DNA of 64,000 nt from Patescibacteria group bacterium UBA1396 (lineage in GTDB: Bacteria > Patescibacteriota > Microgenomatia > UBA1400 > UBA1396). The notes under the pieces were generated by a model that was not told where the DNA came from, did not search any database, and worked only from the letters and a program-made list of their open reading frames with translations. Positions 1 to 58,513 of this stretch are shown here, in pieces. The position numbers were made by a program, and so were the translations under genes. How positions within the stretch are numbered: the first letter of the stretch is position 1; each line of letters opens with the position of its first letter. The stretch spans positions 98,688-162,687 of the forward strand of contig DBQK01000008.1 of NCBI GenBank assembly GCA_002305195.1, given 5' to 3'.

Positions 1-587
1 GTAGTTGGTTGTGTAAATCTTGTCACTCACATTTAACCTGGATTGACTCTCAGATTGATTGGTGGAGTCTTATTAATCTTGATGCCGGTGTTGCCAAAAT
101 TTGGTCGGCAACAGAGTATGTAGATTTAGCCAAAGAGATTGTGGTTCGAGTGAAGTACCAACGGCAATTTGCCTTGTGCCAACTACAAGCAAAAATTATG
201 ATGCTTGCCTATGGCAAATATATTCAAGAGGCAGGAATTGATTGGTTGGTTCCAATTCCGATTACAACCGCTCGTCAACGCTGGCGTGGTTTTAATCAGG
301 CTGCGCTGATTGCTAAACATTTATCAAACTATACCAACATTTCATACAATCTCAAGGCACTGCGCCGCTTAGATCACGGGACAGCACATGCCAAAAAGAA
401 CCGGCAGCAAAGACAAGCTGAGTTACCGATGTTTGAGGCAAATCCTGTAGTTTGTCAAGGTAAAACGATTTGTCTAATTGATGATGTGGTCACAACAGGT
501 TCAACCTTAAAGACTGCGGCTGGCGCCTGCCGCCAGGCAGGCGCCAGCCAAATCTTTGCTGCAACTTTTGCGGCTACAATTGGGTAA
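1..587 (+). CDS. comF: ComF family competence protein (phosphoribosyltransferase fold), probably 5'-truncated by the window edge
   Basis: CxxC at start, RWRGFNQA motif, PRT motif LIDDVVTTGSTL; frame is open back to the window start. Confidence 0.9.
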   Translation, partial: SWLCKSCHSHLTWIDSQIDWWSLINLDAGVAKIWSATEYVDLAKEIVVRVKYQRQFALCQLQAKIMMLAYGKYIQEAGIDWLVPIPITTARQRWRGFNQAALIAKHLSNYTNISYNLKALRRLDHGTAHAKKNRQQRQAELPMFEANPVVCQGKTICLIDDVVTTGSTLKTAAGACRQAGASQIFAATFAATIG

Positions 588-617
588 GAGCTTTTAGGAA
601 AAATCGAAAATAGTTTT

Positions 618-938
618 TTACCGTTGAGTAGAAGTAGAACTTGTATTATGAAGCTGACTGGTATCAATGCCTAGTTCTAACAATTGTTTTTCAATATTTC
701 TCAATTTTCTATCAGCAGAGGCTATCAAACCACGATAACCATTGCATTGATGACAAGTAGTGGGTAAGACTAAAGTACCCTCAACAATATGCCACTTTTT
801 AACATGTTCATTTAAATAAGCGTTATTTCTGTCCAACATATCTTTAAAAAAGAAATATCTTTCCACAAGTTTGGCTTCAGTTGACCTATACTCAGATACA
901 TCATCATGTTTTTTAGAAAACTCACCCATTGGTAACAT
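618..938 (-). CDS. hypothetical protein with CxxC and coiled-coil
   Basis: 106-aa ORF, TATAAT-like box just upstream on the minus strand; no family recognised. Confidence 0.5.
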   Translation of the reverse strand: MLPMGEFSKKHDDVSEYRSTEAKLVERYFFFKDMLDRNNAYLNEHVKKWHIVEGTLVLPTTCHQCNGYRGLIASADRKLRNIEKQLLELGIDTSQLHNTSSTSTQR

Positions 939-1005
939 AGTAAATAATTATATAGCAACTACTTGATAATTTATTGAGTTATAAGAAAATTTTCAAAAAA
1001 AACTT

Positions 1006-1019
1006 TGGTGGAGATGTCG
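1006..1019 (-). repeat. att site: displaced tmRNA 3' end (CGACATCTCCACCA, includes CCA)
   Basis: Identical over 12 bp to 8569-8580. Confidence 0.9.
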
Positions 1020-1174
1020 TCCGAAAAGTGGAACCACTTGATTGAATGGATTGCGACTTGGGGGGAACAACTATCTACCTGTTGGATTTTTTCTCAGGGA
1101 GAAGCGTTTCAATATACCTAACACCACATCCCATCTTATGAACATATGAAGATAATCATATAAAATAAGAGGTA

Positions 1175-4881: not shown

Positions 4882-4992
4882 AGTCCGCTACCAAAAGACT
4901 TTAAATATCACGTCCAACGGTCGTTAAGAGGGGCAACTCTCGTTGACGGTTGGACGTTGGTAGCGGACTTCCTGAGAGGGTTGTCCCTTTTT
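4882..4992 (+). ncRNA. putative structured RNA leader/ncRNA with alternative pairings and a terminator-like end
   Basis: 13-bp stem 4882-4894/4957-4969, nested stem 4910-4918/4949-4957, alternative pairing 4926-4941 with ~4976-4991; TGnTAGAAT promoter at 4865-4873. Confidence 0.6.
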
Positions 4993-9053: not shown

Positions 9054-10721
9054 ATGCTGACCAATTCACTGGCCACCAAAACTCAGTCATCGACACTTAA
9101 GAAAAAAATATCTTCACAACCCAAAAAATTTAGTTGGTCGAGAGTTTGGCACATTTGCCAAACTTGGGCTAATCAACATGAGTGGCTATTTTTATTGTGG
9201 TTATTAGTAATTATCTTGAGACTACCAAGTTTATCTGAGCCTTATTGGTATGGTGATGAAGCAATATATTTAACGATCGGCAACGCCTTAAAATTTGGGC
9301 AACGACTGTACTTAGAAATTGTGGACCATAAAACACCGCTAATCTATTACTTTGCTTCTGTCCCCAACCAATTATGGTTTCGATTATTAATGTCAGTCTG
9401 GATGTTGGCTAGTTCTTACCTTTTTTGGCGATTGGCAAATAAACTATTTCCCAGTTTAAAGGTAGCTCTATTTAGTTCAGTTTTATTTGTTTTTCTGAGC
9501 AATGTTTCATTTATGGAAGGCAATGTTCCCAATGGCGAACTGTTCGTGATTGGTTTTGTCTTAGCAGGCTTGTATTTCTTAAGCAAAACTACTTTTTTTA
9601 ATAACTGGTTACAAGCAGAAAGCCGTTCACTAACTTCCAAAGACTTATGGTTATCTTTTGTAGCGGGATTAATGTTTGGTGGTGGCGTGATGACCAAAGT
9701 GCCAGGCATATTTGACGCAATTGCCGGAGCAAGCATATTTGCATGGTTAAGTCTGCCAGGGCTTTGGTTGTTAATCAGCCCGAGGAGTTTTCGTACACCA
9801 CCACTGAAACAAACTATTTTGGGAGGCTTAATTTTTGTTGCTGGTCTTCTGTCGCCACTGATTCTATTTACTATTTATTATTGGTTTAGAGGTAGCCTGT
9901 CGGCATTCTTAGAATTTGGTCTGCTTTACAATTTTCATTACACCAGCAACTGGACTGTACCAATCGACAATATTTGGCTAGGCACACAATTTGAGCTACT
10001 TAATAAAGGTTTATGGTTAGTGTTTGGTTTACTACTGACAACCTATCTAAGTTTTATACGCTCGGCGGACAGAAAATTAATCTGGCTGTCTTGGTGGAGC
10101 TGGTTGGCTTTATTTGCTGCCTTATTGTCTAATCGCCCTTATCCGCATTACTTCTTGCAGTTAGTGCCACCATTGTCTCTGTTGGCGGCCGCCTGGTTGT
10201 TTACTAAGTCACACTGGTACTCCAAGCTTGTGGCATCCTTGCCAATTTTATTTTCGGCGGCCGCCTTAATTCTGCTGCAGTTTAAACTTTACCCTTTTGT
10301 TGATTACTATCACCAATATCTAAAGTTGGTTACGGGACAGATTTCCCAGACAGAGTATCATCAGCAATTTAATTCTCTGGTTGGTCAAAATGAGGTTATG
10401 GCTCAAACAATCATAGATAACTCATTTTCCAACGATCGATTATTTGTTTGGGGAACCAACCCAATGTTGTATGCACTGACAAAAAGAGTGCCGGCTAGTA
10501 AGTTTACGGTTGCCTTTCATATTCACGACTTGTATGCCTATCAAAATGTATTACAAGAAGTTAAGCTAGCAAAACCATCACATATAGTCGTTATGAAAAA
10601 TGAAACTAGTTGGCCTGATCTCAACGAATATCTTGGCGAGCACTATTTGAGATCGGTTGAAACTGAAGATATGATTCTCTATCGACGCAGTACTTTAACC
10701 AGCTTGATGTTGATACAATAG
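9054..10721 (+). CDS. GT-C fold membrane glycosyltransferase (ArnT/PMT-like)
   Basis: Multi-TM, DE motif (YGDEAIY), DHKTP, C-terminal extracellular domain. Confidence 0.8.
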   Translation: MLTNSLATKTQSSTLKKKISSQPKKFSWSRVWHICQTWANQHEWLFLLWLLVIILRLPSLSEPYWYGDEAIYLTIGNALKFGQRLYLEIVDHKTPLIYYFASVPNQLWFRLLMSVWMLASSYLFWRLANKLFPSLKVALFSSVLFVFLSNVSFMEGNVPNGELFVIGFVLAGLYFLSKTTFFNNWLQAESRSLTSKDLWLSFVAGLMFGGGVMTKVPGIFDAIAGASIFAWLSLPGLWLLISPRSFRTPPLKQTILGGLIFVAGLLSPLILFTIYYWFRGSLSAFLEFGLLYNFHYTSNWTVPIDNIWLGTQFELLNKGLWLVFGLLLTTYLSFIRSADRKLIWLSWWSWLALFAALLSNRPYPHYFLQLVPPLSLLAAAWLFTKSHWYSKLVASLPILFSAAALILLQFKLYPFVDYYHQYLKLVTGQISQTEYHQQFNSLVGQNEVMAQTIIDNSFSNDRLFVWGTNPMLYALTKRVPASKFTVAFHIHDLYAYQNVLQEVKLAKPSHIVVMKNETSWPDLNEYLGEHYLRSVETEDMILYRRSTLTSLMLIQ

Positions 10722-11126: not shown

Positions 11127-12215
11127 ATGCAACTTAATTGGGTTATTACGTGGGTTATTAGTGGCGCGGCCGCGGCCGCGGCCGCGCCACTAATAATCTC
11201 CCTCTATCAACGTCTTGGTTGGGTGGACGATCCAGCTAAACAAAAACACCCCAAGGTCGTCCATACCTATCCAGTTCCAAGAGGCGGTGGGTTGGTGGTC
11301 TCGACCGGAATTATTGCGGGCGTTGTTTTACTTAATCACTACGATCCTTCACTGAACGGCATCTTGCTGGGTGCCTTACTACTACTGATTAGTGGAACCT
11401 TGGATGATGCCTACAATTTGAGTCCGTACTTACGAATAGTGATCAATATTTTAGCCGCTGTTTGTGTAGTACTAAGCGGGATTGGGATTGACTATATCAC
11501 TAACCCTTTAGGTGAAGGCGTAATTTTCTTGAATCAGTGGCCAATTTCATTGCTGTTATTTAATCATCCTTTATCTTTTTCTTTGCCTGCCGATTTATTA
11601 GCCATTGCCTGGATAGTTTGGAATATGAACGCCGTTAACTGGGCTAAAGGTGTCGACGGCCAACTACCAGGATTTGTTAGCTTGTCGGCAATTTTTATTG
11701 CCTTGTTAGCTCTCCGTTTCATCGGCGATACTAGTCAGGTTACCGTGATTAATTTAGCCTTAAGTGTTAGCGGCGCTTATGCCGGTCTACTACTTTGGAA
11801 CAAATATCCGCAAAAAATGATGCCTGGCTATGCGGCCGGTTCGCTGGGAGGCTATTTTTTGTCGGTTTTGGCGATACTATCCGGAGCCAAGATAGCCACA
11901 GTTTTACTTTTACTGGCTATTCCCACAGCTGATGGAATTTTTACTTTGGTCAGGCGATTGGCCAAAGGCCAATCGCCTGTCTGGGGCGACCGAGCTCACC
12001 TTCATCATCGAATGCTCGACGCCGGTTGGGGGAAACGACGAATTGCTTTTTTTTATTGGGTAACAACTGCCTTGTTTGGTATTATCGCCTTACAGCTGGA
12101 TTCTAGGGCTAAACTCTATGCTATGATGGCTGCAGCAATTGTATTTACGGCAATGATTATATGGTTCAAACGCTCTATTACCTCCTCAAAACCGCCCGTC
12201 CTAGACAATGGATAA
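11127..12215 (+). CDS. MraY/WecA/TagO family polyprenyl-phosphate HexNAc-1-P transferase
   Basis: HxxPVPRGGG, LDD, NAVNWAKGVDG, DRAHLHHR. Confidence 0.92.
   Translation: MQLNWVITWVISGAAAAAAAPLIISLYQRLGWVDDPAKQKHPKVVHTYPVPRGGGLVVSTGIIAGVVLLNHYDPSLNGILLGALLLLISGTLDDAYNLSPYLRIVINILAAVCVVLSGIGIDYITNPLGEGVIFLNQWPISLLLFNHPLSFSLPADLLAIAWIVWNMNAVNWAKGVDGQLPGFVSLSAIFIALLALRFIGDTSQVTVINLALSVSGAYAGLLLWNKYPQKMMPGYAAGSLGGYFLSVLAILSGAKIATVLLLLAIPTADGIFTLVRRLAKGQSPVWGDRAHLHHRMLDAGWGKRRIAFFYWVTTALFGIIALQLDSRAKLYAMMAAAIVFTAMIIWFKRSITSSKPPVLDNG
11155..11196. repeat. 42-bp perfect palindrome inside the CDS
   Basis: TTATTAGTGGCGCGGCCGCGGCCGCGGCCGCGCCACTAATAA equals its own reverse complement. Confidence 0.95.
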
Positions 12216-15152: not shown

Positions 15153-16742
15153 TTATGGCTGCTTAGCTATCAGATAAATCAGTGGCCCACCAGGATAGTC
15201 GACTATTTTATACTCTCCCTTAGGGAAGGAACTAATCTCGTAAACAGGTGAATTAATCACTTTGTCTGCTTCCCGAGGGTTTTCGGCAATAATCACCAGC
15301 CAGTCTGCATCAGAAACATTTTCTTGAGCCACCGGCGGATGACTTGAGTTAATCAAAAAGTATCGATAATTTAACCCGCGATAGTCTTTAATTTCGGTTA
15401 AGGCTGCCAGTGAGTAGGATTGTTCTGTTGGAATTTCTCTTAGAACTGTCTGTGCCACGGCTTCCATTTTTGAAATCGGCCAACCTAAAGTATCTAGATA
15501 TTCTAGCTGCTTTGGCTGCACCTGCAGCCAACTAATGTAAATTAGTAAGCTACTTGCTAGAAGAAGTCCAGGAAGTTTCAGGTAGGTGCGAAGCCAAACC
15601 AGTATTGCACCGGTTACTAAATAAGAAATCGGGAAAAAATACGTCAAGTAATGATGGTGAACGGTTGATCTATACCAAGCCAAACCTGAAATAGTAGTCA
15701 GACAAGCAAGTAGTAATAGCCAAAAGCCGAATTGATAATGATGTTTTTTGGACCAGTGCCAACCTAAAAATGCTGTTCCAGCATAAACGCATAGTAAAGC
15801 CGTATTTAGTGATCGATATAAACTTCCCCATTCTTGTCCCCAAATCTCAAAGAAAATATGCATTGCCCGACCATGGTGTTCTTTAACAAAGGCTATTAGA
15901 CGCTCACTTATTAGAAAATTTTCACTGCCAGTGGCAGTGGTACCTGCAAAAAAATCAGTAAAGCCTTTAGCAATCACTCCATTAAATCGTAAGTTAAAGA
16001 GAACTAGCGGCAAAAAAGACAGCAAAATTATGGCTAACCCACTTAAACTAGAAATTAAAAGAGATCGAGCACGATTTGTCTGACCGATTTTAACAACTCG
16101 ATAAGAACGAACAAAATCTGCTAATAATAGGATGCCAAATGGAGCAGCGATTAACATCGCCACGTAATGCAGTTGAATCATTACTGCCCAACCTAAAGCA
16201 ACTCCAATCCACCATTTGGGCGAACCGTGCCAAGCTTTCCAACCTGCATAAAGCATCCCTAAAGTTACTATGGGGGCCGGATTGGGATTCCAACTAAATC
16301 TGGTGTAGAGATTAACATAAGGAGCGAAAGCATATAACAAAGTAGCTAGGGTGGCGGCGGTTGGTCCGACCAACCGCCGCCCAACCATAAACAATAAAGG
16401 TACGGTTATAACACCAATAATCGCTACCGCATAAGCTGGACCCAGCGGACTACCGCTGGCTAACCACAAAAATGGCGCCATAAAATAGTAATAAATTGGA
16501 CCTAGGTACATTTCACCAACACTTGTAGACGGTCCAACTAGAGTAAAATCGCCGTGTAAAATTCCATGAGCAATTATCGCATCACGACCTTGATCGGCAA
16601 GAAACTGAAGACTGTTTGGTAAGTTAAACAAACGATAAGCGGCACCAAATAAAGTAGCTATACAAACAGCTAAGTACTGCCAACGCTGAGAGTTAGAAAG
16701 CCTCACCCACCATTGTCGATACACCGTTAGCCAGTTTCTCAT
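15153..16742 (-). CDS. ArnT/GT39-like GT-C glycosyltransferase
   Basis: ADQGRD, YLGPIYYY, RFSWNPN; multi-TM. Confidence 0.85.
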   Translation of the reverse strand: MRNWLTVYRQWWVRLSNSQRWQYLAVCIATLFGAAYRLFNLPNSLQFLADQGRDAIIAHGILHGDFTLVGPSTSVGEMYLGPIYYYFMAPFLWLASGSPLGPAYAVAIIGVITVPLLFMVGRRLVGPTAATLATLLYAFAPYVNLYTRFSWNPNPAPIVTLGMLYAGWKAWHGSPKWWIGVALGWAVMIQLHYVAMLIAAPFGILLLADFVRSYRVVKIGQTNRARSLLISSLSGLAIILLSFLPLVLFNLRFNGVIAKGFTDFFAGTTATGSENFLISERLIAFVKEHHGRAMHIFFEIWGQEWGSLYRSLNTALLCVYAGTAFLGWHWSKKHHYQFGFWLLLLACLTTISGLAWYRSTVHHHYLTYFFPISYLVTGAILVWLRTYLKLPGLLLASSLLIYISWLQVQPKQLEYLDTLGWPISKMEAVAQTVLREIPTEQSYSLAALTEIKDYRGLNYRYFLINSSHPPVAQENVSDADWLVIIAENPREADKVINSPVYEISSFPKGEYKIVDYPGGPLIYLIAKQP

Positions 16743-19988: not shown

Positions 19989-21288
19989 TTTTTCTCCCGA
20001 TACTAAGGTATAACCACTGGTCAGTGGAAAATTTGGCTGGGTCTAGTTGATTACGTACATCGATGAGGGTTCGGCGCTGGCCGCCGGCCAGCGCCGGCAA
20101 TGAAGCAAAATCAAACCCTACTATTTCCGGCCATTCAATCAACAATATAATCACCTCGGCGTCGGTAACAGCCTCTGCGAGAGTATCAACCAGAGATAAG
20201 TGCGGCTTGGCGCCGACTTGTCGGCGCCAAGCCGCCATCGCCATTGGATCATAAGCTTTGACTTGCGCACCTTTGTGTAGTAACTGTGGCACAACCTTTA
20301 AGCTGGGAGCTTCGCGCAAATCATCGGTATTGGGCTTAAATGAAAGACCTAAAACAGCCACTTTTTTATCTTGCCATCCGCCGATTGATTCGGCAAAATC
20401 CTGCAACTTAAGATGTGGTCGATTTTCATTTAACTCATTAATTTTATTAAATAAATTATCGCCTTGACCGACCGAGCGCGAGTAAGCTGCTAGCTCGCGA
20501 ACATCTTTGGGAAAGCAGGATCCGCCATACCCAAACCCAGGATACCAGTAATGATCACCAATTCTTTTATCGTGACCAATAATCTTGATAACTTCCTGAA
20601 CGTCAGCACCGTTTTCTTCACATAAATCCGCAATCTGATTGATAAAGGTAATTCGCTGCGCTAAATAAGCATTGGCGGTATACTTACCCATTTGAGCACT
20701 CTCAGGATTGGCGATTACAATCGGCGCTTGAAAAGGTTCGTGCAGATGTTTTAAACGCTCAATGGCTGCCGCTTCACGGCAGCCAATCACTACTCTGTCA
20801 GGGTGTAGAGTATCCTCAACCGCCGTACCCTCTCGCAAAAACTCTGGTAGTGAAGCTAAATAAAAGTTTTTATCAGTTATGGATTTAATTTTTTTAGTAA
20901 GGATTGAGAAAATTCCAGGTGGAACCGTGCTTTTGATACCAATGACCACATCATCGGCAATATACTTGGCTGATTCTTGGCAAGCAGCCTCAACATAAGT
21001 GGTGTCCGCCGTTCCATCTGGAGCAGAGGGTGTACCCACCGCTACTAAAATAACTTGTGCATCTGGGATTGCTTCTTGATAACTACTCGTAAACCTCAAC
21101 CGACCGTTTTTTAGCTCTTGTTTAAGAAGATCTGTAAGTCCGGGTTCAAAAAATGGAACCTCACCCTCCTGCAAACTCGCAACTTTGGCTGGATCTATAT
21201 CTAAACCAGTTACCTGATTCCCAAATGAGGCTAAGGCGGCGGCGGTTACAACACCAACAAAACCGGTTCCAATAACAACTACCTGCAT
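19975..21288 (-). CDS. ugd: UDP-glucose/GDP-mannose 6-dehydrogenase
   Basis: GTGFVG, PEFLREG, GYGGSCFPKD, FKPNTDDLRE. Confidence 0.93.
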   Translation of the reverse strand: MQVVVIGTGFVGVVTAAALASFGNQVTGLDIDPAKVASLQEGEVPFFEPGLTDLLKQELKNGRLRFTSSYQEAIPDAQVILVAVGTPSAPDGTADTTYVEAACQESAKYIADDVVIGIKSTVPPGIFSILTKKIKSITDKNFYLASLPEFLREGTAVEDTLHPDRVVIGCREAAAIERLKHLHEPFQAPIVIANPESAQMGKYTANAYLAQRITFINQIADLCEENGADVQEVIKIIGHDKRIGDHYWYPGFGYGGSCFPKDVRELAAYSRSVGQGDNLFNKINELNENRPHLKLQDFAESIGGWQDKKVAVLGLSFKPNTDDLREAPSLKVVPQLLHKGAQVKAYDPMAMAAWRRQVGAKPHLSLVDTLAEAVTDAEVIILLIEWPEIVGFDFASLPALAGGQRRTLIDVRNQLDPAKFSTDQWLYLSIGRKNDQR

Positions 21289-22283: not shown

Positions 22284-23348
22284 TTAACCAAACAAACTCG
22301 CCTGAACTTGATTCTCAAAAGAATCCGAAGGTAATTTTCTCTTTAATGACTCAAAACCCAACTGGGTAAACAGCTCCAAAGCTGACGTTTTGTTGTAATC
22401 ACTTAATTTGGCTTGTTCTAATGAAAAATCCAAAGGAACATCGGTGTCAATCTTGGCTAATTCTTGAGATAGCCAGGCTTCTTCCTGACTATCAACCAAC
22501 TTCTTGATTACTGCTGGGCGTAGATTTCTAACTTTAGATATTAGTTGTACTTTCTCTGATTCGGAAAATTTATTTTCAATCTCAGCTTGATCTAAATGGC
22601 TGCTGGAATTAATTTTGCTGGCAAGCATTAAAGCCTGATATAATCTCTCGATTGAACCAAACTCGGTTAAAAACTGAACGGCGGTTTTCGGACCAACTCC
22701 TTTAACACCTGGAATATTATCAGACGGATCTCCACACAAAGCTTTATAGTCAATTACTTGATCCACCTTAACCCCAAAATGATCTTCAACCGCTTGTTTG
22801 TCAATAACTCTCAGATCACCGCTACCATCGCGTTCCGGCCAGAGCACATAAACATTATCATGAATTAGCTGAAACGTGTCACGGTCGCTGGTAAAGATAG
22901 CCACTTTCAACTCTGGATTTGAATGGGATAATTTCTCGCTAAGTGTACCGATAACATCATCGGCCTCATATCCATTAATACCAATGGTGGGAATGTTTAG
23001 TACTTTAAGCACGGCATACATCAAAGGAAATTGGGCCTTAAGTTCTGGATCGGCTTCTTCACGGTTCGCTTTGTATTGAGTATAGGTTTGGTGACGAAAG
23101 GTGGGCTCTCCCATATCGGTACCGGTGACGATATATTCAGGATTAACGATCTCTAAGACTCTTAGTAGCATTCTGGTAAAACCGTAAACAGCGTTGGTTA
23201 TCTCACCATCTGGTGATTGCAAACTTAACGGAAAGGAGTGGTAAGCTCTAAACAATAATGAATAAGCATCCAAAATAACTAAATCGATATCTTGAGGCAA
23301 TACAGTTGCCTGGTTTGACTGGCTTTTGTCTGAATCTTTACTAATCAT
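22284..23348 (-). CDS. stand-alone 5'-3' exonuclease/flap endonuclease (PolA N-terminal domain)
   Basis: D.YSLLFRAYH, YKANR, YEADD, DRD, GDPSDNIPGVKGVGPKTA; no polymerase domain. Confidence 0.93.
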   Translation of the reverse strand: MISKDSDKSQSNQATVLPQDIDLVILDAYSLLFRAYHSFPLSLQSPDGEITNAVYGFTRMLLRVLEIVNPEYIVTGTDMGEPTFRHQTYTQYKANREEADPELKAQFPLMYAVLKVLNIPTIGINGYEADDVIGTLSEKLSHSNPELKVAIFTSDRDTFQLIHDNVYVLWPERDGSGDLRVIDKQAVEDHFGVKVDQVIDYKALCGDPSDNIPGVKGVGPKTAVQFLTEFGSIERLYQALMLASKINSSSHLDQAEIENKFSESEKVQLISKVRNLRPAVIKKLVDSQEEAWLSQELAKIDTDVPLDFSLEQAKLSDYNKTSALELFTQLGFESLKRKLPSDSFENQVQASLFG

Positions 23349-31255: not shown

Positions 31256-33421
31256 GTGTTTCAACTAGAATCTAATTATCAGGCGGCCGGCGACCAGCCG
31301 GCCGCCATCACTAATCTACTCAAAGGTTTTCAAACCGGTAGTGATAACCAAGTTTTACTTGGTGTAACCGGATCAGGCAAAACCTTCACCATGGCTAATG
31401 TGATTGCTCAACTAAAACGACCAACTTTAGTAATCGCCCATAACAAAACCCTTGCCGCCCAACTTTACCAAGAGTTCCGAGATTATTTTCCCGATAATGC
31501 AGTTAGTTATTTCGTCAGCTACTATGATTTTTATCAGCCTGAAGCATATTTAGTGTCAACCGATACTTACATCGAGAAAGAAGCCGAAATTAATGAAGAA
31601 ATCGATAAACTTAGACTAGCGGCTACGGCCAATCTGTTATCACGTCCCGATTGTATTGTCATTGCTTCGGTATCTTGTATTTATAACCTGGGTCGACCTG
31701 AGGATTTTGCCGACTTATCCTTTGAACTGGTTGAAGGCGAAGTAATCTCAAGGTTAACTATCCAGCGCCGCCTAACTCAGATGCAGTATCAGAGATCAAC
31801 AACCGATTTAAGTCGGGGCACTTGGCGACAGAGAGGTGAAACCATCCAACTCTGGCCGGCAAATGAAGAGTGGGCGCTTAATATTGTTCTTCCAGGAGAT
31901 CAAATTACCAAACTGGAAAAAATTCATCCCTTAACTGGCGAGCTTTGGCCAATTCAAGCTCAACCATTAACACCTTTTGAAAGCACTCGACATCGAATCA
32001 CAATCTATCCGGCCAAACACTACATTATCGAAGAAGATAAAACGACCGCCTTTGCTCAGATTGAAGCAGATTTACAAAAACAACTTGTTAGATTACGAGA
32101 ACAAAATAAGCTCTTAGAGGCCTATCGTCTTGAACAACGCACCTTACATGATCTGGATATGCTTAAAGAAGTTGGTTATGTTAACGGCATTGAAAATTAC
32201 TCGCGCTACTTTGACGGTCGAAAGCCCGGTGACCCTCCCTTCTCCTTAATCAATTATCTTAATTACAACGCCAAAAAATTCGGTGATGGTCGCTGGCTAA
32301 CCATCGTTGATGAAAGTCATATGACCATCCCCCAAATCAGAGGTATGTACCACGGAGATTTTAGTCGTAAGCAAACTCTGGTAGATTATGGCTTCAGATT
32401 GCCCGCTGCTCTAGACAATCGACCATTGCGCTTTGACGAATTTATCAGCAAGATCGATCAGGCATTATTTGTTTCGGCTACTCCCTCCGAGTGGGAAATT
32501 GATTACTCAAAAAATCAGGTTATTGAACAGATTGTCAGACCAACTGGGTTGATCGATCCACCAGTTGAGGTTCGACCAACCCAAAAGCAAATCCCTGATT
32601 TAGTTAATGAAATTGTGATGAGACAAAAACGAGGACAGCGAACCTTGGTAACTACTTTAACCAAAAAAATGGCCGAAGTACTAACGGACTATCTGAATAG
32701 CCAAGAAAAAGTAAATCGATTATTGAAAAAACACGGCTATCAACCTGTGGAAACACTACCTAAAGCACAATATCTACATTCAGACGTTGAAACTCTGGAA
32801 CGCAGTGATATTCTTGATGATCTACGATTAGGCACTTATGACGTTGTGATCGGAGTTAACCTACTACGTGAAGGCTTAGATTTACCAGAAGTAACTCTGG
32901 TTGCTATCTTGGATGCTGATCAGGAAGGTTTCCTACGCTCACAGCAGGCACTAATTCAAACAATGGGGCGCGCCGCGCGACACCTGGACGGCCAGGTCAT
33001 TATGTACGCCGACAAAATAACCAAATCAATGAAAGCGGCTATGGATGAAGTCGCGCGGCGGCGCCAAATCCAACAAGACTTTAACCAAAAACATAATATT
33101 AACCCAACTACCATCGCCAAACCGGTAAGAAAAAAGCTTATTCAGATTGAAAGAAAAACCGAGCTGCCAGGCGTTAAAAATCGATCCAATAATCTGGATA
33201 AATTAAAATCAAGTAGACCAACAAAGCATCAAACGATCGTGGCTCTCAACAAAAAAACGAGCGTAGTCTTGGAAGAGCTTGAGCCAAATTCTCTCACTCC
33301 CCAAGATAAACAAAAACTAATCAAACAGCTTAATCGCTCAATGCTAAGCGCTGCTAAAGAATGGAATTTTGAACTGGCGGCTCAAATAAGAGATACTGTA
33401 ACCGAACTAGAAAATAAATAA
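31256..33421 (+). CDS. uvrB: excinuclease ABC subunit B
   Basis: GVTGSGKT, YYDFYQPEAY, DESH, GRAAR, C-terminal UVR domain. Confidence 0.98.
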   Translation: MFQLESNYQAAGDQPAAITNLLKGFQTGSDNQVLLGVTGSGKTFTMANVIAQLKRPTLVIAHNKTLAAQLYQEFRDYFPDNAVSYFVSYYDFYQPEAYLVSTDTYIEKEAEINEEIDKLRLAATANLLSRPDCIVIASVSCIYNLGRPEDFADLSFELVEGEVISRLTIQRRLTQMQYQRSTTDLSRGTWRQRGETIQLWPANEEWALNIVLPGDQITKLEKIHPLTGELWPIQAQPLTPFESTRHRITIYPAKHYIIEEDKTTAFAQIEADLQKQLVRLREQNKLLEAYRLEQRTLHDLDMLKEVGYVNGIENYSRYFDGRKPGDPPFSLINYLNYNAKKFGDGRWLTIVDESHMTIPQIRGMYHGDFSRKQTLVDYGFRLPAALDNRPLRFDEFISKIDQALFVSATPSEWEIDYSKNQVIEQIVRPTGLIDPPVEVRPTQKQIPDLVNEIVMRQKRGQRTLVTTLTKKMAEVLTDYLNSQEKVNRLLKKHGYQPVETLPKAQYLHSDVETLERSDILDDLRLGTYDVVIGVNLLREGLDLPEVTLVAILDADQEGFLRSQQALIQTMGRAARHLDGQVIMYADKITKSMKAAMDEVARRRQIQQDFNQKHNINPTTIAKPVRKKLIQIERKTELPGVKNRSNNLDKLKSSRPTKHQTIVALNKKTSVVLEELEPNSLTPQDKQKLIKQLNRSMLSAAKEWNFELAAQIRDTVTELENK

Positions 33422-39685: not shown

Positions 39686-41842
39686 TTATGGTACGCGGAT
39701 GGTGATGTCTTTATCAAGTGTAAACTCAGTTTGACCGAAGGGCGTCGCAATCTCAAATGGAATTGGGTCGGTACCGCCTTGTTTTTGCATCGACAAAACA
39801 TATTCTTTGTTATCTAAGTTGTAAGGAACACTTAGAGTTGCCCGAATTTTGGCCTGACTCATGGGGTTAAGTTTGAAAAACCCTTCAATTACATCATAAT
39901 CTTGATTTGAGGTATCGATAACCGGTTCATTCTCAAAACCAACTAGTTGCTCAACTTGAGTACCTTTAGGCACATACCATCTTGTCCAGTTATTAAGCGT
40001 GGCATTGAGACAAAGTAGTCCAGCTTCCAAATTGCAATTTGAGGCAGCGTGAGTATTGCGATAGGTTAACTCAACTTCCTTGCGCAAACGACCATTAGCA
40101 ATCTCTTGAACAGTCTGAGATCCGCTCACTTCAGTGAATAAATTAGATTTCGCCCCACCCAGATTAGCGTCTATAATCGTTAAATAATCGCCTTCCTGAG
40201 ACAGTTTTGGAATAATACCGGCCGCGTTAATAGACTGAGCGGCTAACTGCTTGTCTTCATCAAAAAAATACATCTGCGTGTGTCGACCCTCAATGCTTTG
40301 CCAAACAAGCTGCGCTAACAATGGCCATTTATCTCTGGATGTAGCGTAGGTTTTTTGAATGATTGCCTGCATCATCGGCGCTAAAATTCCCTTGCGGTCT
40401 TCTCTAATATAAGGAGTTGGCCGGTCGATAATTTCACTCAAGGCGTAAATAATCTGGGGACAACCACCGCATTGTGGATCAGGTTCGGCTGAAAAAGTTC
40501 CATAGCCAGGGACCTCAACCGGTCCCAAAACTTCAACAACATTGGCTAAAAGTACGGTGTCAACCGCAATAATGCCGTCAATGTCCTTTGGTTCGCCTCT
40601 AATTTGTTGATAATTCTCATAGAAATCAGCCATAGAATTTGCAAAATTAGGATCGATGTTCATATCGCGTAAATTCCAATAGCGCTCGGTGGTTAAATAT
40701 TTTCCCAAAGTCTCTGGAATTGGTGGCTTATTACTAAATTTCTTGTCAAGCTCATAAATATCATCAGATTTTTCCGGAGTTACTTTGCCATCTTCCACAA
40801 AAACCACGGCGTAGGCTGTCATAAAGCCACCGGTAGGACGTAATTCGTTATCATTTTGGAAAATGACTAGGTATTTTTGGCGTTCTCCGGCCCCAGCAAT
40901 GGCTGGTAATTGCTCAATAGCTGGTCTGGCGTCGGTCAAAATAGTGGCGGCTGCTTGAGCACCATCGTGGAGAGCTTTTACATAACTTCTAACCGGGTGT
41001 CCAGCAATATTTTCTGGATATTTCTGTGGGTCAATCTGTTTAGCATAATCATTCATTTCCTCGACTTTGGCGGAGATCGAGTCAAGCTGGGGTGTAATTT
41101 GAGCTAATGTTTCCAACATTAAACCGATTCTGTCCTCGGTTGTGCCTCCCTCAAAAGTGCCCTCACCACTAAAACCTAGTAAGTCGGCGTGAGGCTTAAT
41201 GGCCTCAAGGGCAAGTTGGCCGGCCTCTAGGCCGGCTAGTCCGGCCTGAAGGCCGGCCTCACCATCAAAATAATAACCCCGCACAACAGGAATGAATTTC
41301 AAATAACCCATCTTCTGGAAAGAAGTTTGCGACTTTACAAGTTGTTCTTTAGCACGACTTAAGTGTAAATCTGTTTCTGGTAAATTCTGCCTCTTAAATG
41401 AGTCATAAGCCAATCTACCCTCGGTGGCTACCTGTTGAATATCGCCCTGCACATTCCTGGCTTGAGCATAAACTGTAAATGCAGCTAAAAATAAAACAGT
41501 AATCCCGACCAATAATACACCACCGGTGATACCTACTGCTTTAAACCAACGCCTTTTTTTGGGAGAAACTCCCCGCCACCAATTCGGCAAGTTTTTCAAA
41601 CTGAATTTATCTTTGTTTTTTTCAACTGCACCTGAATTGGAAGGCAGATCATTATTTATTCTAGACACCTGATTTTTAATTCCTGATTCTGCTGAATCTT
41701 GAGTTTTTTTCGATCGCCTGGCGGTAATTGGGCTGGCAAAAACATCGTCGCCCTGATCTAGATTGCGCTCAGCAGATCGCTCAGTCTTCTTCCAATTAGA
41801 TAATAGTGTTTGATCACTCATAATGGTAGCTCCCATCACCAA
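39686..41842 (-). CDS. DUF4012 domain membrane-anchored protein (start possibly 41821)
   Basis: YLVIFQNDNELRPTGGF, NLRDMNIDPNF, DANLGGAKSN. Confidence 0.9.
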   Translation of the reverse strand: MVMGATIMSDQTLLSNWKKTERSAERNLDQGDDVFASPITARRSKKTQDSAESGIKNQVSRINNDLPSNSGAVEKNKDKFSLKNLPNWWRGVSPKKRRWFKAVGITGGVLLVGITVLFLAAFTVYAQARNVQGDIQQVATEGRLAYDSFKRQNLPETDLHLSRAKEQLVKSQTSFQKMGYLKFIPVVRGYYFDGEAGLQAGLAGLEAGQLALEAIKPHADLLGFSGEGTFEGGTTEDRIGLMLETLAQITPQLDSISAKVEEMNDYAKQIDPQKYPENIAGHPVRSYVKALHDGAQAAATILTDARPAIEQLPAIAGAGERQKYLVIFQNDNELRPTGGFMTAYAVVFVEDGKVTPEKSDDIYELDKKFSNKPPIPETLGKYLTTERYWNLRDMNIDPNFANSMADFYENYQQIRGEPKDIDGIIAVDTVLLANVVEVLGPVEVPGYGTFSAEPDPQCGGCPQIIYALSEIIDRPTPYIREDRKGILAPMMQAIIQKTYATSRDKWPLLAQLVWQSIEGRHTQMYFFDEDKQLAAQSINAAGIIPKLSQEGDYLTIIDANLGGAKSNLFTEVSGSQTVQEIANGRLRKEVELTYRNTHAASNCNLEAGLLCLNATLNNWTRWYVPKGTQVEQLVGFENEPVIDTSNQDYDVIEGFFKLNPMSQAKIRATLSVPYNLDNKEYVLSMQKQGGTDPIPFEIATPFGQTEFTLDKDITIRVP

Positions 41843-43687: not shown

Positions 43688-44842
43688 TTACCGCATCCCT
43701 TTCCGATGTTTTTGCCACTCTGATTCAACAAATTTGATAAATTGTTTTTGCCAGGCGACCTCTGCATATTGGCTTGCTTGACGCTTAATGTCAAGTTTAT
43801 GCCAGCGCACCTGACTTGCCAAAGACATTATTTGTCTTATGGTTGCGGTTTTTTGGTCTTCAAAAAAAAGTCCATCAATGTTGGGTCTAGCAATCTCTGC
43901 TGCCCCACTAGATTTGTTAACAATTACTGGACAACCCTGGGACATAGCCTCTAAAACCACCAGACCAAAATCTTCAACTTGAGGAAAAACAGCGGCCTGA
44001 GCATTTTGCAAATACCAAGCTAGGCTGGCTTGATCAATCCAGCCTACAAACTTAATTAGTCTTCCCTGCGGATCAAGCTGGTTGGCTAGTTGGCGGAGGC
44101 GGCCTGCCAGGGGGCCGTCACCAGCAATAACTAAATTAAACTTGCCCTGGCAGGCCGCCTTAATCAATAAATCAAATCTTTTATATGCCACCAACCTCCC
44201 CCAAGTGAAAAAAAATGGTTGAGTTGGTTTATACCTTGGTTCTTGACTAACTGGTAGAGACACTAGAGGGGGATAAATTACCTTGTCAGACTGGCGACCA
44301 TAATATTTTAAACAACGTCGAGCAACCAAGTTGGATATCGCAATTATTTTATCTGGTCTTTGAGCTAACAAATAATCCCACGTTTGCAGATATTTAAAAA
44401 TTGGCTTAGCCAACCAACGAATAAAATTTGGTATCTGCTGCAAATAAAAATTTCGATGCGACCACAAATACCTAGTTGGAGTTAGTAAGTAACACAAATG
44501 CAGTTGTTCCGGCTTGGTGATAACCCCCTTAGCCGCCTCTGAGGTAACACTAATAACTAAATCATATTTTTCAAGCTCAACACTTTCAAAAATCCAGGGC
44601 ATTAACCAACCCAACCAACGATGTTTACTAGCTAAAAAAGAATTGTTCACAACTGCGTTAACTGACCATGACTTTGCCCAAGGAGCCCCTACCGGATCAT
44701 AAACCGAGGTTACTAACTCGGCTTGAGGTAATAGTTTCTTAATCTGCTTAAGAATTTGCTCGGCTCCGCCTCGACTATTTACTCGATCATAAATAACCGC
44801 TATTTTCAGATCAGCTAACTTGGCTGGAAATTGATACTGCAT
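43688..44842 (-). CDS. GT4 glycosyltransferase
   Basis: GGAE, EDFGLVVLEAM. Confidence 0.93.
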   Translation of the reverse strand: MQYQFPAKLADLKIAVIYDRVNSRGGAEQILKQIKKLLPQAELVTSVYDPVGAPWAKSWSVNAVVNNSFLASKHRWLGWLMPWIFESVELEKYDLVISVTSEAAKGVITKPEQLHLCYLLTPTRYLWSHRNFYLQQIPNFIRWLAKPIFKYLQTWDYLLAQRPDKIIAISNLVARRCLKYYGRQSDKVIYPPLVSLPVSQEPRYKPTQPFFFTWGRLVAYKRFDLLIKAACQGKFNLVIAGDGPLAGRLRQLANQLDPQGRLIKFVGWIDQASLAWYLQNAQAAVFPQVEDFGLVVLEAMSQGCPVIVNKSSGAAEIARPNIDGLFFEDQKTATIRQIMSLASQVRWHKLDIKRQASQYAEVAWQKQFIKFVESEWQKHRKGMR

Positions 44843-44854
44843 AACAACTTAAAC

Positions 44855-46009: not shown

Positions 46010-46090
46010 AACATCTCCTTGAATTGGCTAAATCAATTTAGCTACCAATTACTGTCATTATGCCATTTTTAATTGGCAGTTAGCGACTGA

Positions 46091-46573: not shown

Positions 46574-46577
46574 ACTT

Positions 46578-48681: not shown

Positions 48682-48682
48682 T

Positions 48683-50233: not shown

Positions 50234-50234
50234 A

Positions 50235-53442: not shown

Positions 53443-53444
53443 GT

Positions 53445-54470: not shown

Positions 54471-55014
54471 AAGGAGTTTTATGAAGCTAGACCCAAAATT
54501 TGAATCAGCTTTGACGGTACAACAATACCAAACTAAAGAAAGTATTGAGGGAGTACAGATTATTGACCAGCCGTTTCATCGCGATGACACCGGTAATTTT
54601 ACCGAACTAGGCAGAATTAATGATCAAGGTGAGCTGGAAGCCTTCGAAGGTTTTAAACCTCAACAAGTTAGCTTGTCAATTATGCTACCAAAAGTGGTTA
54701 AGGCCTTTCATGTTCATAAAAAACAAGATGATGTTTGGTATGTTTCTCCAGATAATCGCTTATTGGCCATATTAGTTGACCTCAGAGAAAATTCACCAAC
54801 CAAGGGCAATATGATGCGAGTTATTTTGGGAGGTGGTAGTAATAGCTTACTCAGGATACCGGCAGGCGTGGCTCATGGAGCCGGCAATCCCTGGCACACC
54901 TCAACCAAATTAATCTACTTCACCACTCAGCAGTTTTCACCAGAATCTCCAGATGAATATCGCTTACCTTGGGATTATTTTGGCGCCGATATTTGGCGCA
55001 AAAGTCGAGGTTAA
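54463..55014 (+). CDS. rfbC: dTDP-4-dehydrorhamnose 3,5-epimerase family
   Basis: KAFHVH, DLRENSPT, IPAGVAHG; between rfbB and rfbD. Confidence 0.85.
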   Translation: MSKRSFMKLDPKFESALTVQQYQTKESIEGVQIIDQPFHRDDTGNFTELGRINDQGELEAFEGFKPQQVSLSIMLPKVVKAFHVHKKQDDVWYVSPDNRLLAILVDLRENSPTKGNMMRVILGGGSNSLLRIPAGVAHGAGNPWHTSTKLIYFTTQQFSPESPDEYRLPWDYFGADIWRKSRG

Positions 55015-55062
55015 CCTTAAAATGGCACTATAAATGCCAAATAGTAAAAATTAGACGATAAT

Positions 55063-55923
55063 ATGGAAAAAGAAAAAGCCATTGTTTTTGGAACCGGTTT
55101 ATCTGGTTTGGTTGGTTCGGCAATTATTGCTGGGCTAAGCAATAAATATGAGTTCGTCAATTTAGATCTTAGTCGCGGTGTGGATATTCTTGACCCCAGT
55201 AGTATTGAAAAAGTTTTGTCCTCATACCAAGGAAAAGTTTTGATTCATTTGGCGGCGTTCACGGATGTGAACGCCGCCCAACAACAAGATGGGGATAAAT
55301 CTGGAAGCTGTTGGCGAGTAAACGTTGAAGGAACAGCCAACATTGTTAAAGCTTGCCAGCAACATCAGTTGCACCTTATACATTTCAGTACAGCCTATGT
55401 TTTTGACGGTCAACAAAAAACTCCTTACCTGGAGTCTGATCCAGTTAATCCCGTAGACTGGTATAGTAAGACCAAGGCCGAGGCCGAAAAAATTGTTTCC
55501 ACCCAACTGCCTAAAGCAAGTATTTTGCGTATCAGCTTTCCATATAGTCAGCAACTATCTAGTCGTCTAGACGTATGGGATAAAATTGCACAAACTCTAA
55601 AAGATGGTCGGACTGGACCGTTTTTTAAAGATCATTTCTTTACCATGACTCCGCTTGAGTGGTTAGTTCCGGTAGTTGATTGGGCAATCGAAACTCAACC
55701 CGCTGGTATTTGGCATACCACAACCGATAAAGTTTTTTCTGATCTAAGTTTGGCCAAACTTATTGCTAACGAGCTAAACTTGCCAACATCATCGTTGCAA
55801 AGTAGTTCAGTAAGAGAATATAACCAAAAGGCAGAACGTCCCTATCAACCATACCTTGTTCTTGATAACCAAAAATTAAAAAAGGCTATGGGTCCGCGCT
55901 TCCCTCAAGAAAATGTTACGTAA
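55063..55923 (+). CDS. rfbD: dTDP-4-dehydrorhamnose reductase family
   Basis: GLSGLVG, HLAAFTDV, STAYVFDG, YSKTK. Confidence 0.88.
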   Translation: MEKEKAIVFGTGLSGLVGSAIIAGLSNKYEFVNLDLSRGVDILDPSSIEKVLSSYQGKVLIHLAAFTDVNAAQQQDGDKSGSCWRVNVEGTANIVKACQQHQLHLIHFSTAYVFDGQQKTPYLESDPVNPVDWYSKTKAEAEKIVSTQLPKASILRISFPYSQQLSSRLDVWDKIAQTLKDGRTGPFFKDHFFTMTPLEWLVPVVDWAIETQPAGIWHTTTDKVFSDLSLAKLIANELNLPTSSLQSSSVREYNQKAERPYQPYLVLDNQKLKKAMGPRFPQENVT

Positions 55924-56944
55924 TTTGATAACAAATCTAGTTTCTCGCTGGCGATTAATAATTACCGTGTTAGTGCTATTTTTTCTAGCCTATTATATTG
56001 AACTTCATCCTGATTCAATCAAATTGCCACCAGGATTATCGACACCCATACACAAACTGACACAGAGGTTGGGATTAAGCTCGGATAAAATATCAAACTC
56101 AGATTCAGTTTCTCAAAATATTTCTGCTGAACAAATCATCAGCTTTGTTGCTTCACAAAGACAGACGGCTGAACTGGCGGTACCACAAACTAATACCACG
56201 CTTGAAAAAGCAGCACGCCTTGTAGCTTTAGCAGTCGAAGATCAGCAGCAACTTACTACTGATTTATCTTTACCAGAATTACTCAAAGCAATTGGAACTA
56301 AACAGCCACCAGAATTAGAAAATTTAACCATTTTTGTTTCGGGTTTTGGTGACTTTCAACAAGCCATGATCAACCCAGAAAAACCTAGTAAACTAATTAC
56401 TCAAGCAGACTATCAACAAATTGGTGTGGCGGTTCGTCCGGCTGAATTTCAAGGGGAAATTGGTAATATTATCGTCATTTTAAGCTCACCAGATTTTGTC
56501 AATGAGGCAGAGGAAAAAGAAATGTCTAGGGATGAGGCGCCGGCCGCGGTGCGGCCGGCGCCTCCTGCCACCACTCCTACCTTCACTGGTCAAGATCTTT
56601 GGCAAGCAGTTCAGAACTATCGCCGGGCCCATCGCCTGCCAGAATTTGTACAAGCTAACGAGTTGTGCACCGTAGCCAGCATTAGACTGAATGAGCTTTT
56701 AGAACTAGGCAAACTTGACAACCACGATGGTTTTGGTCCACGAGCCGAAGAGTTTTTTGAACGTCACCCTGATTGGGACAGTATTAATGAAAATTTAGCT
56801 GCTGGGTATGAAACAGCAGTTCAAACCGTAGAATGGGGCTGGGACCAAAGTCTTGGTCATCAAGCCTTGATAAAAAGCCTTGATTACCCCAAAGCGTGCG
56901 CGGCCGCACAAAGAGGCTTTGCTGTTTTAATAACCGGCAAATAA
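55913..56944 (+). CDS. membrane-anchored CAP (SCP) domain protein, two CAP-like repeats
   Basis: VQNYRRAHRL, HDGF, ENLA, SLGH; degenerate N-terminal copy. Confidence 0.8.
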   Translation: MLRNLITNLVSRWRLIITVLVLFFLAYYIELHPDSIKLPPGLSTPIHKLTQRLGLSSDKISNSDSVSQNISAEQIISFVASQRQTAELAVPQTNTTLEKAARLVALAVEDQQQLTTDLSLPELLKAIGTKQPPELENLTIFVSGFGDFQQAMINPEKPSKLITQADYQQIGVAVRPAEFQGEIGNIIVILSSPDFVNEAEEKEMSRDEAPAAVRPAPPATTPTFTGQDLWQAVQNYRRAHRLPEFVQANELCTVASIRLNELLELGKLDNHDGFGPRAEEFFERHPDWDSINENLAAGYETAVQTVEWGWDQSLGHQALIKSLDYPKACAAAQRGFAVLITGK

Positions 56945-57004
56945 TAGAATCTTGGCTAATAAAATCTTAGTTTTGGCTATGTTTATTTGAACTGATATTA
57001 GATA

Positions 57005-57391
57005 TTAAGCCACCAAGCGTCGGTTGGGAACTTGCCTCATTTTTCTAAGATTATTAATCATAGTCTGTAGCATTGCCGCCCTAACCTTTAATTCATCCTC
57101 AGCAAGACCAAGTTTATTAGCCGGTCGATCAGACTTAGGGTGAAGTAAGTCGATCACAACTCGCTCAATATCAGCGGCTTCCCGCTCGATATCGGTTGCG
57201 TAAAATGCCCCGTTATTTCCTTGGCTTGGCTGTCTTGCCAGTGTCCTGGCAGTTTGCATGGCTTCATTAACTAATTTTCTTATCACTTTGAGTGTGTGGT
57301 CATGATCTGTTTTTATACTTTCCCGACGAACCAATGGTTCGCCAATCTTGTTTTTTCTATCTACAGCCACCTTAGCTTCTCTTGCGATCAT
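57005..57391 (-). CDS. hypothetical helical protein
   Basis: 128-aa ORF with AGGAGGG RBS. Confidence 0.65.
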   Translation of the reverse strand: MIAREAKVAVDRKNKIGEPLVRRESIKTDHDHTLKVIRKLVNEAMQTARTLARQPSQGNNGAFYATDIEREAADIERVVIDLLHPKSDRPANKLGLAEDELKVRAAMLQTMINNLRKMRQVPNRRLVA

Positions 57392-57631
57392 AGCTCCCTC
57401 CTACCTAATTAAATTCAGTATCAATGCTTTGGGTTTGGCAAAATCCCAACTAAGTGCTCTTCCTTTCTAACCTGTTAGACTAAATTTAAAAATTAAAGGT
57501 TTTGGCAAAATTTGGTAATAGTCACTTAAGAATTTAAGCAAGTGATCGCTAAGAAGCATGCCGTAGAAAAAAGATTGGAATCGTTGAAAAGGTAATCTCA
57601 GAGAACTAAAAACAACACACAACCTTAGTAA

Positions 57632-58513
57632 CTACAAAATGGTACTGGTCTCACCTGAATCTGCTTGTTTGTCTCTTGGAGGTAAAACGTAGACATCACT
57701 GCCATACTCACTCTCGCCAACCAACCTGGCCTTCCCCTGTAAAACCATTTCATAAGGTTTGCAGGCAGGACAGCCTTGTTCGCCGTTGGGACAAGGAAAG
57801 TGTTCCAACTTGCGAGCGGTTTTAATTTTTTGTGCAATTTGAAGTACTCTTTGTTTGGCCTCATCTAAGTCAGGCAAAACTTGTGGTGTTAAATCATCGT
57901 TCGATTCTAAATACCAATAGCTGGCCTTGGCAACCTCTCGGTGTTGGCAGTGATGAACTAATAAATAATAAATTGGTAATTGTAGAGAATCTTCCTTTTC
58001 TATATTTTTACCGGTTTTAAAATCGATAATGTGAACTTGATCCGATTCTGGTATGTATTCCAACCAGTCAATCTTGCCGCAAAGAATTAATCCCTCTGGT
58101 TCCGATAACCAAAACCACGGAAGTTTCTCTGTTATCTTGACGGCTTTATTGGCTAACGGACCAGGATTGTTGATGACGCGGCGCAGCATCGCTGCGCCGC
58201 GTTCCTTATACTCCCTCTCTGTTTCAGCTCTGAAGAAACCACCCTGTAAACCACTGACCCTACCCCACACTCGCTCATATTTCTTGATAAGTGATTCCTT
58301 AAAACGCTCGGCCGTCGGTAAAACCGAAAGTGCCTCTAGAACTTCGTGAACAGCCGAGCCCAAAGCCAGAGGTGGAGCCATTAGTTGAATTTTGTGTTTG
58401 GTTTTGGGATCGCGATAAATGTTTTTTAAATAATATGCCCGAGGGCATTGTAAATAATCTTGAATTGAGGAATGGGAAACCCACACCGCACTATATTTGT
58501 CAGCCATACCCAC
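57632..58513 (-). CDS. PD-(D/E)XK nuclease (RecB/AddB/Cas4-like, Cys-flanked)
   Basis: SHSSI..YLQCP, GSAVH, GKID, IIDFKTG, QLPIY, C-terminal Cys cluster. Confidence 0.9.
   Translation of the reverse strand: MGMADKYSAVWVSHSSIQDYLQCPRAYYLKNIYRDPKTKHKIQLMAPPLALGSAVHEVLEALSVLPTAERFKESLIKKYERVWGRVSGLQGGFFRAETEREYKERGAAMLRRVINNPGPLANKAVKITEKLPWFWLSEPEGLILCGKIDWLEYIPESDQVHIIDFKTGKNIEKEDSLQLPIYYLLVHHCQHREVAKASYWYLESNDDLTPQVLPDLDEAKQRVLQIAQKIKTARKLEHFPCPNGEQGCPACKPYEMVLQGKARLVGESEYGSDVYVLPPRDKQADSGETSTIL

Follow-up and report, generated by a model that had tools for sequence, protein, structure and literature searches.

Perfect GC-rich inverted repeats with quantised spacer lengths inside the genes of a Patescibacteria family

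What produces, and what keeps perfect, the GC-rich inverted repeats (IRs) that lie inside genes of the Patescibacteria group bacterium UBA1396? The stretch in which they were noticed, hereafter the window, comprises 64,000 nucleotides (nt), corresponds to G000:C7:98688-162687 in our genome set and belongs to an assembly of 666 kb that is 73% complete and has 40% GC. Our analysis shows that the repeats are a real, family-level trait. In six genomes of this family the spacers between the arms fall into quantised length classes of 0-5, ~20-39, 60-79 and 130-150 nt. A first-pass annotation of the window had described the repeats without this quantisation, which our follow-up identified as their main feature.

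For comparison we used a set of nine genomes of the family f1 (G000-G008) and a set of 31 genomes of the order, made up of these nine and 22 others. Relatives were sampled in part, with 72-789 kb per family genome and 20-60 kb per order genome, and the low counts for G004 and G007 are soft. G001 and G002 are congeners of G000, while the strain contigs L170 and L171 share 97.4% identity with the window over a strain comparison of 21.6 kb in total. Genes were called by a simple open reading frame (ORF) rule. The UvrB of the window is 51-54% identical to those of relatives labelled Levybacteria, Woesebacteria, Gottesmanbacteria and Microgenomates, which suggests a Patescibacterium of the Microgenomates type.

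Perfect inverted repeats in the window and across the genome

The window contains 12 in-ORF repeats with arms of at least 12 bp, whereas 97 of 100 synonymous codon shuffles contain none. Genome-wide, G000 carries 102 in-ORF repeats (arms of at least 11 bp, GC at least 0.6) compared with 2.5 in codon shuffles and, when these are divided by spacer length into 0-5, 6-59, 60-85 and 86-120 nt, the counts are 48, 12, 38 and 4 versus 0.25, 1, 1 and 0.25 (four shuffles). A null that preserves the GC class of each codon gave 4.4 and 4.9 where 44 and 41 were observed (maxima of 20 shuffles: 9 and 8), and AT-rich repeats occurred at counts near their null. The codon-shuffle control that the first-pass annotation had proposed therefore places the repeats far above expectation, both in the window and genome-wide. 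It had also proposed a check for assembly artefacts, which we carried out on contigs: those of four runs from four independent studies span 44000-58300 (40 of 534 differences listed) and support the repeats, which are likewise retained in L170 and L171 and recur in six separately assembled genomes. At least half of the sampled sequence words occur in 17 runs. Taken together, the codon nulls, the independent runs and the strain contigs indicate that the repeats are neither a product of chance nor an assembly artefact. The repeats of the window are as follows.

518..549: IR, 14-bp arms, 4-nt spacer, in the comF-like gene at 9-587 (+)
10184..10265: weak IR, 10-bp arms, 62-nt spacer (~70 class), in the ORF at 9054-10721 (+)
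11155..11196: palindrome, 21-bp arms, no spacer, in a WecA/MraY-like gene; unpaired in the G001 and G002 orthologs
11951..11979: IR, 13-bp arms, 3-nt spacer, in the same WecA/MraY-like gene as the 11155 palindrome; newly listed
16353..16381: IR, 14-bp arms, 1-nt spacer, in the ORF at 15153-16742 (-)
20072..20096: IR, 12-bp arms, 1-nt spacer, in a nucleotide-sugar dehydrogenase gene
20202..20235: IR, 16-bp arms, 2-nt spacer, in the same nucleotide-sugar dehydrogenase gene as the repeat at 20072; arm residues unlike those of G001 and G002
28412..28443: palindrome in miaB, 16-bp arms; among the few conserved cases, with 12 bp perfect in G002 as well
31282..31306: IR in uvrB, 10-bp arms, 5-nt spacer; encodes Ala at a residue that is Pro in 28 of 29 ortholog rows
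32971..33060: IR, also in uvrB, 11-bp arms, 68-nt spacer (~70 class); of the 11 pairs, 9 form in G002 and between 1 and 8 in the remaining 26 rows
41218..41258: weak IR, 9-bp arms; in the sister strain a synonymous single-nucleotide polymorphism (SNP) gives 10 bp with a 21-nt spacer
44097..44160: IR, 16-bp arms, 32-nt spacer (~33 class), in a glycosyltransferase gene; arms identical in L171
45959..46010: IR, 14-bp arms, 24-nt spacer, spanning a start codon; one-sided break at 46002 in three of four runs and in L171
49809..49903: IR, 21-bp arms, 53-nt spacer; the sister strain pairs 13 bp only, and a derived Val-to-Ala change at 49896 marks the perfect allele
55251..55278: IR, 12-bp arms, 4-nt spacer, in an rmlD-like gene; newly listed
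56534..56564: IR, 14-bp arms, 3-nt spacer, in the ORF at 55913-56944 (+)
58176..58202: IR, 12-bp arms, 3-nt spacer, in a Cas4-like nuclease ORF; L170 lacks the terminal pair

All 13 main repeats of the earlier list proved perfect, with coordinates and arm lengths as claimed, and its two weak ones are present with refined boundaries (10184-10265 and 41218-41258); the list was nevertheless incomplete, since 11951-11979 and 55251-55278 had to be added. Its statement that all repeats lie in coding sequences holds in so far as every one is found in an ORF, except that 45959-46010 overruns a start codon by one base. That the repeats differ in sequence was borne out by the 93 long spacers, which have no sequence in common; of the GGCC/GCGC cores that it named, GGCC is under-represented genome-wide (0.68). 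Within the repeat at 56534-56564, an extra base at position 56546 is seen in a minority contig of run X2 (depth 4/20) and may be an error.

The spacer ladder and the sequence around the stems

In G000, 48 spacers measure 0-5 nt and 41 form a long class of 71 +/- 7 nt, with few in between. To obtain a pooled ladder we combined G000, G002, G003, G005, G006 and G008, using arms of at least 11 bp with GC of at least 0.7. Counted in 10-nt bins from 0, the spacers number 70, 5, 7, 12, 1, 7, 32, 36, 8, 3, 2, 1, 0, 6, 3 and 1, followed by three at 210-213 nt, while the null gives at most 1 per bin. The ladder persists after G000 is dropped. The peak at 128-152 nt holds 10 repeats in 25 nt against 4 across the flanking 80 nt (p=2e-4) and that at 17-39 nt 22 against 8 (p=3e-3), each in a window chosen post hoc. 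The mix of classes varies between genomes: in 315 kb of G003, 26 spacers are short and 8 long, the 80 kb of G008 contain 8, all of them long, G004 and G007 show the short class only and G001 has just 5 repeats in 389 kb. Outside the family the class with spacers of 56-90 nt matches its null, with 2 versus 2 in 494 kb of the order, 7 versus 7 in 964 kb of metagenome loci and 27 versus 22 in 504 kb of other phyla. At G005:C1:57079-57289, a perfect 47-bp IR with an 85-nt spacer and a 20-bp IR with a 138-nt spacer together span a gene junction. Our literature search, from which most subscription journals lay outside scope, returned no paper on in-gene IRs of Patescibacteria or on spacer peaks of this size; a survey reports that some genera over-represent palindromes in coding sequence (PMC4060949).

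The sequence around the stems is polarised. The 5' arm is G-rich (43 versus 14), and in the outer flanks of short stems, 2-12 nt away, wobble positions on the 5' side carry G at 0.36 and C at 0.08, while those on the 3' side carry C at 0.50 and G at 0.09, against a background of 0.21. This skew is the same on both strands, is gone by ~20 nt, is absent from the spacer side and is unpaired in register; in orthologs it is weak or absent (wobble C 0.07 in G000 versus 0.19-0.22). It is independent of gene direction and of fork direction. Repeat density is 21 per 100 kb in co-directional and 17 in head-on genes, with leading strands guessed from a weak GC skew, and we found no effect that would make the direction of replication or transcription a driver.

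Template switching on wrapped DNA and its rivals

The sites turn over within the genus: only 3 of 62 repeats are paired at the orthologous site in G002 and 0 of 22 in G001. Comparison of orthologs, which had been suggested as a way to detect compensatory changes, thus found few sites kept and, between strains, no two-sided change; arm SNPs relative to the sister strain number 3 in 178 bases (120 in 6113 nearby), each one-sided, in what is a small sample. It had been argued that the repeats are codon choices rather than insertions. They are indeed not insertions, because length is unchanged relative to G002 in 54 of 66 repeats and no change has the size of a spacer, the largest gain being 2 codons relative to G002, with one of 10 codons relative to G001. 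Codon choice alone does not account for them, however, as 58 of 62 repeats differ from G002 in at least one amino acid encoded by the arms.

Pairing within the stems is all-or-none. Among stems of at least 13 bp, 98 are perfect and 20 have one inner mismatch, and pairing past the first mismatch drops to background (0.24-0.37). Following the argument made for coding palindromes of Nematomorpha mitochondria (PMC6649704), such all-or-none identity points to copying or conversion. The change at position 49896 is a single polarised perfecting change: the residue is Val in the sister strain and in G002 and Val or Ile in 75 of 80 aligned rows (near-duplicates included), whereas the window has Ala, which lengthens the arm from 13 to 21 bp. 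Derived arm-extending changes against the preference of the protein number two only, this one and the Pro-to-Ala change in UvrB. Changes to Ala make up 13 of 27 derived changes in arms and 316 of 4515 elsewhere, an excess that is partly due to the selection of GC-rich arms. Perfection of the repeats by template switching, which the first-pass annotation had ranked second, fits the 98 perfect against 20 near-perfect stems, the turnover and the polarised Ala change better than the adaptive landmark code it had put first, which finds no support in the turnover, in arm SNPs at the local rate or in the near-random spacing along the genome (coefficient of variation 0.66-1.15).

With about even confidence, we therefore favour self-correction by template switching on single-stranded DNA (ssDNA) wrapped by the ssDNA-binding protein SSB over a function selected site by site or an adaptive code. 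SSB tetramers would coat ssDNA at the fork or in gaps. GC-rich, nearly complementary words, mostly Ala, Gly, Arg and Pro codons, could then pair only when directly adjacent (0-5 nt) or when the intervening DNA is half-wrapped, fully wrapped on one tetramer or wrapped on two (~33, ~70 and ~140 nt). A stalled nascent end would switch template and copy one arm onto the other, a mechanism known from other systems. Selection at the protein level would purge harmful events, and stable GC-rich stems would be corrected more often and last longer while others decay. Pairing across 70 or 140 nt would require a single-stranded nucleic acid, and a length preference blind to sequence a protein ruler; cruciforms would be unlikely for spacers of 60-150 nt. 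The match in size to SSB, the lack of a histone fold in five genomes, by which a histone wrap was rejected, the order-wide presence of Rho and spacers that are not C-rich all lead to SSB, and the ladder may represent half, one, two and perhaps three wraps. While the ladder itself is observed directly, we infer SSB as its cause from the match in size.

That match is with the E. coli protein, whose (SSB)35 and (SSB)65 modes and octamers give 35, 65-77 and about twice that length (PMC4652220, PMC9917605). On natural DNA it occupies 35-77 nt, and when fully wrapped it assembles into octamers, which are dimers of tetramers (PMC4652220). In the 65-nt mode both ends of the strand are near each other, and the protein becomes locked once these ends form a duplex, on a strand whose labels are 69 nt apart (PMC9917605). 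These values were obtained in vitro, while the SSB of the family is known from sequence; our literature search returned no genomic imprint of such lengths. In E. coli and yeast, switching at quasi-palindromes likewise homogenises arms, can change amino acids and is tied to fork stalling and Okazaki fragment processing (PMC6357072, PMC5941160, PMC8604942, PMC5677150). There, however, it is rare and favours short spacers (two of these studies limited spacers to 70 nt), whereas here the excess is tens-fold and the long-spacer peak is nearly as big as the short one. The Nematomorpha repeats are also perfect IRs in conserved coding sequence with all-or-none identity, gain and loss, a phase bias and conversion as the proposed cause (PMC6649704). 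They differ in reaching 284 bp, whereas the repeats described here lie on a bacterial chromosome and have GC-rich arms of 11-21 bp and polarised flanks; a ladder of ~33, 70 and 140 nt is not described in the abstract or Discussion of that paper. We regard the trait, as the best single description and with a probability near one half, as a new form of template-switch perfection with a protein-sized ruler.

Several observations weigh against this interpretation. The peak windows were picked post hoc and the related genomes are not independent of one another. SSB and the nuclease gaps described below are common to members of the order that lack the trait, which the loss of MutS and MutL does not track either. 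Yeast switching prefers short spacers (PMC8604942). All four strain differences in arms are single-base, with no multi-base switch among the 21.6 kb compared, and derived amino-acid changes in arms occur at the background rate (27 versus 29 expected). Rewriting of one arm looked convincing by eye but failed its control, the lopsidedness of arm-to-arm divergence from G002 being 0.18 in repeats and 0.18 in controls (n=62; G002 is saturated). Finally, the polarised flanks are covered only by an add-on, a possible stalling on G-rich template once the second arm is reached; a selected hairpin with tails would yield the same flank order.

If SSB sets the ladder, the genome sequence records the wrapping modes of the protein in vivo. 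Which modes are used in cells is still debated. The readout would be comparable across species, since the class mix differs (G003 mostly short, G008 only long). Moreover, a templated process that is strong enough, in an uncultured lineage, to replace conserved residues encoded by core genes with alanine matters when the fast-evolving proteins of Patescibacteria, and their codon bias, are interpreted.

The alternative that survives best, although we consider it unlikely, is that the stems are selected or driven ssDNA landmarks, in which SSB-locking stems with G-rich 5' and C-rich 3' tails aid the survival or recombination of transforming DNA or recruit a replication or restart protein, accumulating genome-wide like uptake sequences while single sites turn over. 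It predicts an identical ladder and would explain a flank polarity that is lineage-specific and symmetric on both strands, and wobble-wobble pairs that are 74-76% GC where the GC content of third codon positions (GC3) is 0.36. ComEC and DprA were present in five of five genomes tested, and strain SNPs are mosaic (gaps up to 807 nt, mean 36). Accessory genes are depleted: the reported absence of repeats from the genomic island of the window has no power (1.4 expected, P(0)=0.26), but genes without a homolog in the sampled G001 and G002 carry 8.0 repeats per 100 kb versus 20.7 in the remainder (p=5e-4). On the other hand, the arms are not protected from SNPs, G001, which has the same competence genes, is nearly free of repeats and selection for stability would leave many near-perfect stems, of which few exist. 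In its most far-reaching form, which we judge rather improbable, this alternative becomes a genome-wide code of shape instead of sequence, with tailed stems clamping one, half or a pair of SSB tetramers and kept by selection or transformation drive as a signal for self-marking or recombination. HIP1, DNA uptake sequences and Chi are fixed words that are genome-wide, lie in genes, turn over and are rarer in foreign DNA. The repeats share this distribution, turnover and foreign-DNA depletion, but a Markov scan of 4- to 8-mers across the genome found no dominant word and showed the arms to be made of ordinary GC-rich words. Selected stems would be a new kind of DNA signal, and a shape code a structural counterpart of DNA uptake sequences running through protein-coding genes.

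Selected mRNA structures, serving stability, Rho avoidance or ribosome spacing and having loops whose length is dictated by an RNA-binding complex (Rho, for example), are improbable. The footprint of Rho is about 70-80 nt and the protein is encoded in all nine family genomes; 79 of 89 GC-rich repeats with arms of at least 12 bp are confined to one ORF and, among pairing phases, the protein-sparing one is preferred (45 versus 22 versus 22). Against this, G-U pairs are not tolerated on the sense strand, where no wobble bias is seen (G-T 2 versus A-C 3 in stems of at least 13 bp; 16 versus 13 in another count), which also counts against the mRNA processing or stability suggested in the first-pass annotation. 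Repeat position along genes is uniform, last and internal operon genes have similar densities (11.5 versus 12.0 per 100 kb), the spacers are not C-rich, the sites are unconserved and Rho is found order-wide (28 of 31 genomes), on which ground it was also rejected as the trigger. The Rho gene of G000 (G000:C1:5808-7202) encodes a long low-complexity N-terminus.

That the repeats are scars or degraded remains of a mobile palindromic element, with stems mirroring host sequence, is very improbable and largely refuted. Rickettsia palindromic elements (RPE), repetitive extragenic palindromes (REP) and miniature inverted-repeat transposable elements (MITE), elements of a kind mentioned in PMC6649704, are palindromic and may sit in frame in genes, and G000 does have an 84-nt REP/MITE-like palindromic repeat. 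Such elements, however, are insertions of one shared sequence, whereas the repeats here are neither inserted, as shown by the unchanged lengths, nor shared, with no cross-matches among the 93 long spacers and none to the 84-nt repeat. The latter is mostly intergenic and occurs seven times in G000, but is absent from the DNA sampled for eight relatives; one central pair is A-T in two copies, G-C in four and mismatched in one, a two-sided change. Its copies lie outside the window.

C1:18805-18888: 84-nt repeat copy
C3:1872-1951: 84-nt repeat copy
C11:10280 and C11:21747: 84-nt repeat copies
C12:32810, C12:45269 and C12:49754: 84-nt repeat copies

Chance, through amino-acid content or GC clustering, and assembly artefact have a negligible probability, for although the arms overlie GC-rich protein motifs (ortholog GC 0.62), two codon-level nulls, distance-specific peaks, independent runs and strains and recurrence in six genomes all speak against them.

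Gene content and observations beside the repeats

We searched the gene content for enzymes that might permit or trigger the trait. The SSB of G000, encoded at about 81.8-82.3 kb of G000:C2, is of the standard type with a single OB fold and an acidic tail (the comparison of SSB across the family is partial). The search of this genome for a polymerase domain of Pol I was negative; the window contains the following gene.

22284..23348 (-): stand-alone 5'-3' exonuclease (N-terminal part of Pol I)

Only one short fragment of a Pol I polymerase domain occurs among the 31 order genomes, SbcD is found in 0 of 31 and DEDDh 3' exonucleases in 0 of 9 family genomes. Exonuclease I recruited by SSB reportedly aborts template switching. 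In yeast, loss of the flap nuclease increases it (PMC5677150). We conclude that the absence of these enzymes, several of which restrain the process in other organisms, is permissive yet insufficient for the trait.

Of the candidate triggers, loss of MutS and MutL tracked the trait perfectly on samples of 40-80 kb and fell when G003 and G005 were found to keep both genes along with many repeats. ExoVII remains a hint only: G001, G004 and G007, which lack the long class, have MutS and ExoVII, but so does the trait-bearing G005. Crosslinks of cytosine methyltransferase were rejected (PF00145 in 0 of 9 family genomes), as were DinB and DnaE, present with no pattern, and RecJ, whose OB domain reaches 57-66 bits in family members versus 78-116 in the rest of the order while its catalytic motifs look intact (four aligned). 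Of the 81 genes specific to G001, 50 were scanned and, MutS and MutL aside, a Schlafen-type helicase domain was the sole feature linked to nucleic-acid processing. The mutS and mutL genes are adjacent in five of nine family genomes (G001, G003, G004, G005 and G007, the match in G007 having one internal TAG), and MutS was found in 1 of the 22 other order genomes.

The island contains a stem-loop at 4882-4969, intergenic and flanked by a divergently oriented OLD-like nuclease gene and the ORF beside it, with outer arms of 13 bp and z=-6.5. It has no Rfam match, the only Rfam matches in the window being a tmRNA and one tRNA. A large serine recombinase gene at 7048-8631 (+) overlaps the 3' end of this tmRNA (8567-8963, -), which is likely to be the integration site of the island.

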